A stretch of 20,101 nucleotides of DNA. Source: a virus. The notes below the pieces were generated by a model that ran no database searches, was not told the DNA's origin, and saw only the letters and a list, made by a program, of their open reading frames with translations. The stretch lies in the UHGV virus genome UHGV-1687506. One strand, written 5' to 3'. A program made the position numbers and the translations under genes. This document shows, piece after piece, positions 12,351-19,387 of this stretch (position 1 is its first letter; each line of letters opens with the position of its first letter).

Positions 12351-12706
12351 TGGCACGTATCGGGGGAACCTGTTATTTCAAAATTGACGGTCAGCAGCTA
12401 TCGCTGACCGGCGGCATTGAGGTGCCCATGAACAGGACGGTCAATGATGACATCATCGGCCTGGACGGTTCAGTGGACCGCAAGGAAACTCACCGTGCGC
12501 CCTATGTCAAAGGGACCTTCAAGGTGCCGAAGAATTTTCCGGTGAGCAAAATCACCTCGTCTGATGAGATGACCATCACTGCCGAGCTGGCGAACGGTCA
12601 GGTCTATGTACTGTCGTCTGCCTGGCTGCACGGCGAAGCGAACCATAATGCCGAAGAAGGCACGGTCGATCTTGAGTTCCACGGTGAAGAAGGGGATTAC
12701 CAGTAA
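12350..12706 (+). CDS. Tail tube protein (Mu gpM-like)
   Basis: 118 aa, TAATG overlap with the sheath stop, GAGGAG ribosome-binding site, conserved position after the sheath gene. Confidence 0.8.
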   Translation: MARIGGTCYFKIDGQQLSLTGGIEVPMNRTVNDDIIGLDGSVDRKETHRAPYVKGTFKVPKNFPVSKITSSDEMTITAELANGQVYVLSSAWLHGEANHNAEEGTVDLEFHGEEGDYQ

Positions 12707-12975
12707 TGAAAGAGCTTGAGTTAAAGAAACCGATTACCGCTCATGGCGAGACACTCTCCGTACTGGAGTTTGATGAGCCCACCGGGAAAGATGTCCGCGA
12801 GCTGGGGTATCCCTACCAGATGAATCAGGATGAGTCCGTCAGACTTCTGGCGCATGTGGTATCGAAATACATCGTGCGGCTGGCGAAAGTGCCGCAAAGC
12901 TCTGTCGACCAGATGTCTCCGGCAGACCTGAATGCAGCGGCGTGGCTTGTGGCCGGTTTTTTCCTCCAGGCCTGA
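12706..12975 (+). CDS. Tail assembly chaperone, short form (lambda G analogue)
   Basis: 89 aa, TAATG-coupled to the tube gene and located directly upstream of the tape measure gene. It ends 10 nt after a T-rich slippery site. Confidence 0.7.
   Translation: MKELELKKPITAHGETLSVLEFDEPTGKDVRELGYPYQMNQDESVRLLAHVVSKYIVRLAKVPQSSVDQMSPADLNAAAWLVAGFFLQA
12957..12963 (+). promoter_or_regulatory. Candidate -1 ribosomal slippery heptamer T_TTT_TTC
   Basis: The sequence fits X_XXY_YYZ in the zero frame of the chaperone (codons TTT TTC at 12958-12963). Slipping back one base gives FFPPGLTAEY... in the overlapping frame. Confidence 0.55.
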
Positions 12976-13124
12976 CGGCTGAATACCTCACTGATCGCTT
13001 CTTTGACTGCGCCAGTTACTGGCGCATTAATCCTTTCGAATTGCTGAATATGCCGATCAGTGAAATTCCCTTACTGGTCAGTCAGGCAAACAGGATAGAG
13101 CAGGAGAAACGCACACATGGCTGA
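12957..13124 (+). CDS. -1 frame extension of the tail chaperone (lambda GT analogue), predicted to be made by programmed frameshifting
   Basis: The -1 frame is open from 12942 to 13124 and overlaps the end of the chaperone ORF across the heptamer T TTT TTC (12957-12963). Its stop overlaps the tape measure start. Confidence 0.55.
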   Translation, partial: FFPPGLTAEYLTDRFFDCASYWRINPFELLNMPISEIPLLVSQANRIEQEKRTHG

Positions 13125-15012: not shown

Positions 15013-16319
15013 ATGACGTGGAAAGACAGATTTCAGGACGCGTCATTTCGCGGTGTGCCGTTTAAGGTTGAAGAAGAAAGTACGGGAACCGGTCGTCGTG
15101 TGGAAACGCACGAATACCCGAACCGCGACAAACCCTATACCGAAGACCTAGGGAAAATCACTTTCCGCCCGTCCATCACGGCTTATGTGGTGGGAGATGA
15201 CTGCTTTGACCAGCGCGATCGCCTGATTAACGCGCTGAATAAACCCGGTCCCGGCACGCTTGTCCATCCGACTTACGGTGAGCTGAAAGTCTGTGTTGAC
15301 GGAGAGGTTCGGGTCAGCACATCGAAGAGTGAAGGGCGTATTGTCCGCTTTGACCTGAAGTTTGTCGAAGCGGGAGAACTCTCTTACCCCACATCAGGTG
15401 CGGCGACGGCGCAGACGCTGATGTCATCCTGTTCTGCACTGGATGACTGCATCAGTGACAGTTTCAGTAGTTTCAGTATCGATGGCGTGGCAGATTTTGT
15501 GCAGAACGACGTCGTCGGTAATGCCAGCACAATGCTTGGGTATGTTTCTGATGCGATGAAAGTGGTGGATTCTGCCGTATCGGATGCCGCCAGGCTGTTG
15601 CAGGGGGATATCTCGGTACTTCTGCCGCCGCCATCGTCAGGCAAAAATTTCGTTGAGCAGGTGCAGAAAATGTGGCGTACCGGGAAGCGCCTTTATGGTA
15701 ACGCCAGCGACCTGGTCACCATGATCAAAACGCTTTCCTGCAACCGCGCGGCGTCTGGAAAACGGACAGTAAAACCACCGCCACGGCTACGCAGCAGCGT
15801 AACGTGGTTGCCAGCACCCTTCGTACGACCGCAATCAGCGAAGCGGCGTATGCCGTCACCCGATTGCTTGCGCCAACAACTTCCGCGGTGATGCAGAATG
15901 CCGCAGTGGGGCAGGCAACAACACCTGCGCAGAGCACTGGCTGGCCTTCCGTCACGAATCCGGCACTGAACAATGCACCGGCGGTGAAAAACACAGTTGA
16001 CCTGCCGACGTGGGAAGAACTGACTGACATTCGCGACACACTGAATACGGCAATTGATAAGGAGTTGTCCCGTACAACCAGTGATGCGCTGTTTCTGGCG
16101 CTGCGCCGGGTGAAAGCAGATCTGAATGCGGATATCAACACGCGCCTTGAACAGTCTGCACGGATCATTCAGCGCACGCCGGATGAGGTTTTACCCGCGC
16201 TGGTGCTGGCGGCGACCTGGTTTGATAACGCGGCGCGTGACGCGGACATTATCCGGCGTAATGCCATTACGCATCCCGGCTTTGTGCCGGTGATCCCTCT
16301 GAAGGTGCCAGTGCAATGA
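15013..16319 (+). pseudogene. DNA circulation protein (Mu gpN-like) interrupted by a frameshift near 15735-15755
   Basis: The N-terminal part (track ORF 14971..15891, real start MTWKDRFQDASFRGVPF at 15013 with GGAG upstream) and the C-terminal part (frame of track ORF 15804..16319, open from 15702) are in different frames. Plausible protein sequence switches from one frame to the other inside CAACCGCGCGGCG, and each frame turns to R/P/S-rich nonsense beyond the switch. Confidence 0.7.
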
Positions 16320-17395
16320 ACGACAATGTCACGCTACGGGTAAATGGCCGGGAGTGGAATGGCTGGACATCGGTGCGCATCGGTGCCGGTATTGAACGGC
16401 TGGCGCGGGATTTCAGTGTGGAGATCACTCGCCAGTGGCCGGGAGATGAGGGTATCACCACGCTTCAGCCGCGCATTAAAAACGGTTCAAAAGTGGAAGT
16501 GCTGATTGGTGATGAGCTGGTGATCACCGGCTGGGTGGAGGCGACTCCCGTTCGTTACGATGCCCGTTCGGTCAGCACCGGTATTGCCGGACGTAGTCTG
16601 ACGGCTGACCTGATTGACTGTGCAGCCGAACCGACACAGTTTAACGGACGCTCGCTGGTGCAGATTGCGCAGGCGCTTGCTGCGCCTTTCGGCATTGAGG
16701 TGGTGAACAGCGGTGCGCCGTCGGGTGTTATTCCTGATGTTCAGCCTGATCACGGTGAAACGGTGATTGAGGTAATCAACAAAATACTCGGTCAGCAGCA
16801 GGCACTGGCTTACGACGACCCGCACGGCAGGCTGGTGATTGGCGGTATTGGCTCAACGCGGGCACATACTGCGCTGGTACTTGGGGAAAACATCCTTTCC
16901 TGCGATACGGAGAAGAGTATCCGGGAGCGATTTTCTGTTTACCAGGTGGCGGGGCAGCGTGCCGGAAACGACGATGATTTCGGTGAGGCCACCACCACCG
17001 CGCTGCGGGCCCGCACAGAGGACGCATTTATTGCCCGTTACCGTCCGATGTATATCAGGCAGACAGGGCAGGCTACGGGGGCAGGCTGTATTGCCCGTGC
17101 GGACTTTGAAGCCCGACAACGGGCGGCGCGGACGGATGAAACCACCTATGTGGTGCAGGGCTGGCGACAGGGTAACGGTACGCTGTGGCAGCCCAACCAG
17201 CGGGTGATTGTCTTTGATCCGGTCTGTGGTTTCGACAATACCGAACTGCTTGTTTCGGAAGTCACGTTTACTCAGGACCAGAACGGCACCCTGACGGAAA
17301 TCCGTGTCGGCCCACCTGATGCTTATCTGCCTGAACCCGAAGATCCCGGTGCGCGGAAAAAGAAAAAAGCCAGAGTACAGGAGGACCCGTTCTGA
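16316..17395 (+). CDS. Baseplate hub protein (Mu gpP / gp44-like)
   Basis: 359 aa, ATGA-coupled to the upstream gene, in the conserved position after the N-like gene. Confidence 0.8.
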   Translation: MNDNVTLRVNGREWNGWTSVRIGAGIERLARDFSVEITRQWPGDEGITTLQPRIKNGSKVEVLIGDELVITGWVEATPVRYDARSVSTGIAGRSLTADLIDCAAEPTQFNGRSLVQIAQALAAPFGIEVVNSGAPSGVIPDVQPDHGETVIEVINKILGQQQALAYDDPHGRLVIGGIGSTRAHTALVLGENILSCDTEKSIRERFSVYQVAGQRAGNDDDFGEATTTALRARTEDAFIARYRPMYIRQTGQATGAGCIARADFEARQRAARTDETTYVVQGWRQGNGTLWQPNQRVIVFDPVCGFDNTELLVSEVTFTQDQNGTLTEIRVGPPDAYLPEPEDPGARKKKKARVQEDPF

Positions 17396-17943
17396 TGAGG
17401 ACGATTGAAGCCATGCAGCGACAACTTCTCGGCCTGATTGGGCGGGCAGTGGTGAAAAGCATCAGTGCCGCCACGAAATGTCAGACCGTGGATGTGTCCC
17501 TGATTGCCGGTGAACCCAAAGCCGGGGTTGAACATCTTGAACCCTACGGTTTTACCGCAAGGGCAAACAGCGGTGCGGAAGCGGTGGTGTTGTTTCCGGA
17601 TGGCGACCGTTCTCATGCGGTGGTTGTTACGGTGTCGGACCGGCGCTACCGCCTGAAAGGGCTGCAGACGGGTGAGGTGGCTGTCTATGACGATCAGGGG
17701 CAGTCTGTGACGCTGACCCGGGAGGGGATCGTGGTGGACGGTGCAGGTAAAACGATCACGTTTCGCAATGCGCCCAGAGCACGTTTTGAAATGGACCTGG
17801 AAGTGACCGGACAGGTGAAAGACCTGTGCGACTCCGGCGGTACCACCATGTCAGCGATGCGGCTTGCCTATAACGGGCATCGTCACAGAGAGAACGGTCA
17901 GGGCAGTAACACCGACAAACCTGATAAAGCGATGGAGGCATGA
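17395..17943 (+). CDS. Baseplate spike / assembly protein V (Mu gp45-like)
   Basis: 182 aa, TGATG overlap with the upstream stop, conserved order. Confidence 0.8.
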   Translation: MRTIEAMQRQLLGLIGRAVVKSISAATKCQTVDVSLIAGEPKAGVEHLEPYGFTARANSGAEAVVLFPDGDRSHAVVVTVSDRRYRLKGLQTGEVAVYDDQGQSVTLTREGIVVDGAGKTITFRNAPRARFEMDLEVTGQVKDLCDSGGTTMSAMRLAYNGHRHRENGQGSNTDKPDKAMEA

Positions 17944-18342
17944 TGGAACTGTGGCTGACGGTGAACGGTAAACGCACCTGCGCCAGCGCAGAACTGGATC
18001 CGCTGACCCGCGCCGTGGTGATTTCCCTGTTTACCTGGCGGCGGGCGGAGCCTGATGACAACGCCGACGTCCCGATGGGATGGTGGGGGGATACCTGGCT
18101 CCCGACTGTGGCTGCTTCAGCGCAGCAAACTGACCAATCAGATGGTGCAGACGGTAAGGGGGTATATCCGCGAATGCCTGCAATGGATGATTGATGACGG
18201 CGTGGTGTCCCGTATTGATCTGGATATCCGCCGCACCGGGATTAATGAACTGGGTAACAGTATCACTCTCTGGCGTCGTGACGGACCGGTAACGATTTCT
18301 TTTGATGATCTGTGGAGTGCGATAACGCATGGCGGACAGTGA
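17940..18342 (+). pseudogene. Mu gp46-like baseplate protein interrupted by a frameshift at a G6 run (about 18085-18090)
   Basis: Track ORFs 17940..18194 and 18055..18342 are in different frames. The N-terminal half is plausible in the first (...PMGWWG) and the C-terminal half in the second (...[15 protein letters not shown]...[11 protein letters not shown]). The switch maps to TGGTGGGGGGAT. Confidence 0.7.
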
Positions 18343-19387
18343 ATTTCAGCGCCCGACGCTGGCAGAAAATATCAGTATGCTCCGAAACGATTTATTCGCC
18401 AGGCTGGACGTCAGCGACACGCTCCGGCGCATGGATGAAGACGTGCGGGCAAAGGTGTATGCGGCGGCGCTGCATACGGTTTACGGTTACATCGATTATC
18501 TGGCAATGAACATGCTGCCTGACCTGTGCGATGAGTCCTGGCTGGCGCGACATGCTGCGATGAAACGGTGTCCGCGCAAGGGGGCCACGGCTGCCAGCGG
18601 GTATATGCGCTGGGAAGGTGTCAGCGATGGCCTGAAGGTGACCGCCGGGAGTGTTATTCAGCGCGATGACCTGGTTCAGTACACGGCAACTGCCGATGCA
18701 ACCAGCTCCGGTGGTGTCCTGCGCGTGCCGATCGCCTGCTCAAGTGCAGGTGCGGTCGGTAACGCTGACGACGGTACGGCATTAATCCTGGTCACGCCGG
18801 TGAATGGTCTGCCGTCTTCCGGTGTGGCTGACACCCTTACAGGCGGATTTGATACTGAAGAGCTGGAAACGTGGCGCGCCCGCGTCATTGAGCGGTATTA
18901 CTGGACGCCTCAGGGCGGGGCTGACGGGGACTATGTCGTCTGGGCTAAAGAAGTGCCCGGCATTACCCGCGCATGGACATACCGTCACTGGATGGGAACG
19001 GGAACTGTCGGTGTGATGATTGCCAGCAGTGACCTGATTAATCCCATTCCGGAAGAATCAACGGAAACGGCAGCAAGACAACATATCGTGCCACTGGCCC
19101 CGGTGGCAGGCTCTGATTTGTATGTATTCAGGCCGGTGGCGCACAAAGTGGATTTTCATATCCGCGTGACGCCGGACACACCAGAAATACGAGCCGCCAT
19201 CACCGCGGAGTTGCGTTCGTTTCTTCTGCGTGATGGTTATCCGCAGGGAGAACTGAAGGTATCGCGTATCAGTGAGGCGATTTCCGGTGCGAACGGGGAA
19301 TACAGCCATCAGTTGCTTGCACCGGCAGACAATATCTCCATTGCGAAAAATGAACTGGCGGTTCTGGGAACGATTTCATGGACGTGA
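18329..19387 (+). CDS. Baseplate J-like wedge protein (Mu gp47-like)
   Basis: 352 aa in the conserved position; recognised as the Baseplate_J family. Confidence 0.85.

Follow-up and report, generated by a model that had tools for sequence, protein, structure and literature searches.

The gp46-like gene at positions 17943-18342 of the window, by which we mean the whole 20,101-nt stretch of UHGV virus genome UHGV-1687506, lies on the plus strand and reads in two frames that are one nucleotide apart. The question raised by this locus is what brought the two frames about, and whether the change belongs to the organism's DNA. A preliminary description, made from the sequence alone, placed the frame switch at a run of six G residues (G6) and left the choice between a decaying, tail-defective prophage and systematic sequencing errors in homopolymers and GC-rich DNA. 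Comparison with intact alleles leads to a different lesion, a 26-bp deletion in an E. coli prophage of the SfI/SfII/SfV type, and the gene, that of baseplate wedge protein 1, is probably a null allele of recent origin.

Two halves of one gene

The two frames are represented by two overlapping ORFs on the plus strand. ORF A (17940-18194, 84 aa) extends from the native N-terminus to WWGDTW and continues for 32 out-of-frame residues to a stop codon at 18192-18194. ORF B (18055-18342, 95 aa), whose frame is +1 relative to that of ORF A, starts with 14 out-of-frame residues and then follows the native sequence from GSRLW to the natural C-terminus. In terms of the intact gene, the 5' part (17943-18096, plus strand) comprises native codons 1-51 and the first base of codon 52, in frame A, and the 3' part (18097-18342, plus strand) comprises native codons 61-141 and the stop codon, now in frame B and thus +1 relative to the 5' part. 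The 5' part is exactly that of the intact gene of E. coli PCN061, and the gene of phage SfI differs from it only in a 3-nt patch in codons 17-18.

Both ORFs match the Pfam family GP46 (PF07409), ORF A at profile positions 1-36 (E = 1.3e-8, 35.1 bits) and ORF B at positions 39-100 (E = 4.8e-19, 68.6 bits). Since both scores exceed the gathering score of the family (28.6 bits) and the matches cover adjacent parts of the profile, the ORFs are two halves of one gene and no chance arrangement, in agreement with the preliminary description. The length of the gene (400 nt) is not a multiple of three, and its native-frame reading meets nine internal stop codons. The single uninterrupted ORF of about 140 codons that characterizes a functional GP46 member is not found in it. 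The gene is a pseudogene of the GP46/Mu gp46 family. Translation from the native start gives 52 native-identical residues (51 from native codons plus W52, recreated by TGG at the junction), followed by a 32-residue nonsense tail that ends at 18194. A GGAG lies 4 nt upstream of the ATG of ORF B, and weak independent translation of this ORF is conceivable.

The lesion is a 26-nt deletion downstream of the G6 run

In alignments with the intact genes of PCN061, E. coli W21 and SfI, the window matches its homologues through TGGTGGGGGGATACCT; the relatives then have 26 further nucleotides, and the alignment resumes at GGCTCCCGACTG. The missing block, GGCCTGCGGTACAGAATGACCGTTAC, is carried by all three of these relatives and is absent between 18096 and 18097. 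It begins with GGC, and a GGC also follows directly after it, so that the junction (18096-18099, plus strand) includes a 3-nt microhomology at 18097-18099. Because of this microhomology the breakpoint can be placed only to within 3 nt. In frame, the loss of 26 nt is equal to +1, and the deletion thus fully accounts for the frame shift.

The G6 run is indeed present at 18085-18090 on the plus strand, as described earlier, and the deletion starts 6 nt downstream of it. The run lies inside the codons of the conserved WWGD motif (TGG TGG GGG GAT), and the intact PCN061, W21 and SfI genes have a run of the same length. The proposal that the frame switches at the run does not survive this comparison: homologues with an identical G6, including those of related functional phages, read as a single ORF. 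The intact protein has 141 aa (a single 426-nt ORF), somewhat longer than the 135 aa or so that had been estimated.

What is lost is a conserved part of the protein. The 26 nt hold the codons for WPAVQNDRY, immediately after the WWGD motif. Across 19 homologues that are 75-87% identical and come from Escherichia, Citrobacter, Enterobacter, Kosakonia and others, the deleted residues P53, N57, D58 and R59 are invariant, as is D50, and the deleted V55 and Y60 are nearly so. Trimming the G6 run to G5 in silico does give one ORF, of 132 aa. However, this product is without the nine residues of the conserved loop, and without the conserved D50 and residues 51-60; such a form was seen in no natural allele or homologue among the 19 compared. 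A G5 or G7 at the run, on which the preliminary description had relied for restoring the gene, would therefore not recreate the natural one.

The remainder of the gene is nearly unchanged. Over its 400 nt there is one SNP relative to PCN061, a T>C change at 18293 (plus strand), 197 nt downstream of the deletion, that is private to the window in the three-way alignment described below and in the native frame replaces Met by Thr. Thr is the consensus at this position in the Citrobacter and Enterobacter homologues. Among the matches listed, the best full-length identity in complete E. coli genomes is at most 94.9%, the value expected for a 26-nt gap plus one mismatch, and this is indirect evidence that no complete E. 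coli genome would carry C at 18293.

Intact alleles predominate

Matches to a 501-nt query that includes the gene came from 1,106 records of 1,098 among 5,426 complete E. coli genomes; in 1,093 of the genomes the match extends over at least 80% of the query. The E. coli matches listed each cover 527 nt of the record and each bear the annotation of a single 'phage GP46 family protein', and the span is the same in phages SfI, SfII, SfIV and SfV. The uniform span and single-protein annotation throughout the listed matches indicate that the intact form is the norm. PCN061 has all 501 query bases in common with the window except for the deletion and one SNP, and the identity to the four phages is 92-94% when the 26-nt gap is included. 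In PCN061, W21 and the four phages, the neighbouring genes and their overlaps are the same as in the window, whereas their gp46-like genes are single 426-nt ORFs for 141 aa, in contrast to the 400 nt and two frames of the window copy.

The family relationship to phage Mu is seen both in the gene and in its surroundings. Mu gp46 (PDB 9ki1; PF07409) belongs to the same family as the window gene and has the WWGD...GSRLWLL motif in common with it. The intact PCN061 allele matches chain 9ki1_A over residues 19-123 in sequence (E = 1e-14), and 9ki1_A is also the top Foldseek match of a model of an intact homologue, P0014 (probability 1.00, TM 0.51), although the model is only of moderate quality (mean pLDDT 70). 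The gene sits between those for a gp45-like spike and a gp47-like baseplate J protein, as expected in a Mu-type baseplate cluster. The Pfam order in the cluster is DNA_circ_N (gp43), GpP/Gp44 domains, Phage_Mu_Gp45, GP46, Baseplate_J (gp47) and Phage_Mu_Gp48, and the Mu order (gp43, gp44, gp45, gp46, gp47, gp48) is that of the window. There are also differences. In the intact SfI-type protein the loop from WWGD to GSRLW is three residues longer than in Mu, and the window copy, unlike Mu gp46, is interrupted by the 26-nt deletion and the frameshift. In the P0014 model, pLDDT is below 50 for residues 40-61, the loop around the deletion, and the role of this loop is judged from conservation only.

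A second deletion in gp43 and the state of the rest of the window

A second baseplate gene is also broken, within the 2.5 kb stated in the preliminary description. The gp43-like tube-initiator/DNA-circularisation gene (15013-16319, plus strand) has lost 22 nt, CGGTGTCAGCCTCGGCAGCGAT, after 15737, and it carries a private C>A change at 15957, 220 nt downstream of the deletion. The lesion is about 2.4 kb upstream of that in gp46, and the microhomology at its ends is a single C. Of the gp43 homologue, the N-terminal tube-like domain remains, and everything from codon 242 onward is lost.

How exceptional the two lesions are can be judged from a three-way alignment in which the full 20,101 nt are set against the PCN061 and W21 prophages (99.7% identical). 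In full, the differences are seven SNP columns, the 26-nt deletion in gp46, the 22-nt deletion in gp43 and 56 extra nucleotides in the lysis gene Rz. There are no single-base indels in the 20.1 kb aligned, and all 80 homopolymer runs of at least 5 nt, 16 of them of at least 6 nt, keep the length found in the relatives. When the PCN061 annotation is transferred, the mapped genes other than gp43, gp46 and Rz are free of internal stops. These include the holin, endolysin, iss, HNH, both terminase subunits, portal, protease, capsid and connectors, as well as the sheath, tube, chaperone, tape measure, gp44, gp45, gp47 and gp48. Excluding Rz, 23 of the 24 other mapped genes are the same as in PCN061 in protein, and TerL differs by one residue. 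The head, packaging, sheath, tube, tape-measure, hub, spike and other wedge genes are intact. That only gp43 and gp46 are broken (Rz differs) and the rest is stop-free argues for two discrete events, and against systematic homopolymer or GC-rich error. Of the two possibilities left by the preliminary description, a tail-defective prophage fits the sequence, whereas homopolymer error does not, the lesions being deletions of 22 and 26 nt.

The changes at 15957 and 18293 are the only point changes private to the window outside the Rz tract. With 828 nt of gene remnant downstream of the deletions, both would lie there by chance with a probability of about 0.0017. Relaxed selection on dead remnants, or break-associated error-prone repair, would explain this clustering.

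The Rz difference is of another kind. In the Rz/Rz1 lysis genes (1578-1778), the 56 extra nucleotides occupy 1709-1764, and the end of Rz is an out-of-register mosaic. The 56-nt stretch is identical to that of another natural Rz allele, which occurs at an identity of at least 99% in about 1,467 E. coli genome records, among them the K-12 remnant adjoining trkG. The version of this stretch that belongs to the resident allele comes after it, and Rz ends in ...QQYITERG*. The exact hybrid Rz product, when looked up by sequence, was not on record. The embedded Rz1 ORF (1540-1725) ends in SGNDW, where the annotation of K-12 rzoD also ends in the alignment. The mosaic looks like the product of homeologous recombination between two prophage lysis cassettes.

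A different type of frame change is found in the tail-assembly-chaperone pair (12706-13124), where an ORF at 12706-12975 is overlapped by a -1 frame ORF at 12942-13124. A T_TTT_TTC heptamer lies at 12957-12963, just before the stop of the first ORF, and PCN061 and W21 are the same as the window throughout the region in the three-way alignment. The heptamer is likely to be a programmed frameshift site, unlike the gp46 lesion.

Origin of the deletions and alternative explanations

For gp46, the proposed course of events is that 26 bp were lost between two GGC triplets, right after the WWGD motif, the likely route being slipped-strand mispairing or microhomology-mediated end joining between the triplets. 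The gp43-like tube initiator is broken by a separate 22-bp deletion. The near identity of the window to its intact relatives suggests that the deletions are recent. A hairpin as the cause of the deletion was considered and rejected: in folding, the intact sequence on either side of and including the 26 nt has no advantage over shuffled DNA (z = 0.79). In the region 15500-18500, the only repeats are short pairs at chance level, and none of them flank either lesion.

The lesions were also sought elsewhere. Exact 33-mers spanning the gp46 and gp43 junctions are absent from collections of species-representative genome contigs and of metagenome contigs. Megablast of 44-mers centred on the two junctions, a placement from which intact alleles cannot seed a match, found none in the 5,426 complete E. 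coli genomes. The exact split products have no record in an exact-protein index, and in a homology search the closest match to the 83-aa frame-A product has 87% identity. The window lesion is private, in that both junctions are unique to this sequence among the collections searched.

This uniqueness bears on whether the gaps of 26 and 22 nt exist in the organism's DNA at all, or were introduced by mis-assembly, poorly supported reads or polishing. That neither the junctions nor the split products recur in very large collections is what such an artefact would predict, but it fits a recent private mutation equally. The private point changes 197 and 220 nt downstream of the gaps could likewise mark locally poor sequence. 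However, sequencing errors are typically of 1-2 nt in homopolymers, the kind that the alignment lacks entirely, and an assembler would not usually leave out 22-26 nt from coding sequence that is unique and non-repetitive. Moreover, the third private indel joins two natural alleles of Rz in a clean mosaic, a pattern that points to a biological event. On balance an artefact appears unlikely, if still the most credible of the alternatives. A one-base indel in the G6 run, be it from sequencing error, slippage or phase variation, has in its favour the 132-aa ORF that is restored by removing one G, and the existence of true G5 forms elsewhere. It is nonetheless refuted by the alignments with the intact PCN061, W21 and SfI genes, which have G6 exactly like the window, and the 26 nt missing just downstream are sufficient for the +1 shift; together with the absence of the G5 'repair' product from the homologues compared, this leaves hardly any room for such an indel.

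The arrangement might instead be functional, either through programmed frameshifting (+1) at the run of G or as a split protein that still supports tail assembly. The G-rich run 6 nt upstream of the junction, the GGAG in front of ORF B and the presence in the same window of one likely programmed-frameshift site, that of the chaperone, are in line with it. Against it, every relative examined, in E. coli and among phages, has a single ORF with the 26 nt present (among the matches listed), any product would be without the invariant residues, and gp43 is broken independently. There is also no known stimulatory element, and no Rfam family match in the whole window. A functional role for the two frames thus has next to no likelihood. 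A more elaborate possibility is that the two deletions and the point changes some 200 nt downstream of them are scars of targeted double-strand breaks, made by a self-targeting CRISPR system or another nuclease, so that an otherwise pristine prophage was actively disarmed. The breaks would have been repaired by microhomology end-joining with error-prone synthesis. The 22- and 26-nt deletions do hit two baseplate proteins that contact each other, and NGG sites (Cas9-type PAM) were seen by eye near both, but at this composition they are too frequent to be meaningful. Targeted breakage is accordingly rated as very improbable, and ordinary decay of the prophage, through loss of 26 bp between the GGC triplets, is preferred.

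Other broken forms of the gene

Independently broken forms of gp46 are found in other public E. coli assemblies (P0001-P0004, P0021, P0029 and P0031). They resemble the window copy in that the same gene is broken in the same 60-nt neighbourhood, with truncated products that have out-of-frame tails. The lesions, however, each differ, and none is the 26-nt deletion of the window. True G6-to-G5 forms are P0031, with 21 member sequences, and P0029; the former was confirmed at the DNA level in GCA_025847755.1. P0001 has a +1 change in the CCC run after GS, P0004 and P0021 are -1 forms, and P0003 has a larger deletion. Disrupted copies of gp46 are thus encountered often, and in other assemblies, although not here, indels do occur at the G run.

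The G5 gp46 of GCA_025847755.1 belongs to a related E. coli prophage (JAOZFA010000001.1: 3364882-3371097), in which gp43, gp44/45 and gp47 are likewise annotated as fragmented genes, the result of either heavy decay or an error-rich assembly.

Consequences for the prophage

In the cryo-EM structure of Mu, gp46 is baseplate wedge protein 1 (BW1), present in six copies and seated at the corner between two domains of gp43, the hexameric tube initiator, and it supplies a two-stranded beta-sheet that initiates sheath assembly (PMC11915804). By homology, the deletion would cause loss of gp46 function. The long helix and beta-sheet predicted by the model (residues 74-129) are not made in frame in the window. 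With both gp46 and gp43 affected, no baseplates and therefore no contractile tails should form, but the prophage would still be able to make heads, sheath and tube subunits.

Effects on neighbouring genes may follow. The gp47-like baseplate J gene (18329-19387, plus strand) is intact, and its start overlaps the native stop of gp46. The frame A stop now lies 135 nt upstream of this start. Since the starts of gp47 and gp44 overlap the native stops of gp46 and gp43, respectively, translational coupling of both downstream genes may be lost.

For annotation, the gene is best described as a gp46-family pseudogene that arose via a 26-bp deletion, and not via a homopolymer frameshift. The element as a whole is best classed as a tail-defective prophage: it could lyse cells and might package DNA, but would not make infectious virions unaided. 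In method, the locus illustrates that a nearby homopolymer is a tempting but unreliable cause to assign to a frame change: once intact alleles were aligned, the lesion shifted by only a few bases but proved to be of another nature. Inactivation of prophages through small deletions is commonplace, and a GP46 pseudogene in the well-known enterobacterial group of SfI, SfII, SfIV and SfV is nothing new in kind; it is ordinary prophage decay.

The window also carries an iss gene (increased serum survival; a bor-like lipoprotein) at 1869-2162 on the minus strand, between the lysis cassette and the HNH/terminase genes. Its protein is the same as that of the gene annotated iss in PCN061. As host-benefit cargo, iss could favour the retention of a defective prophage.
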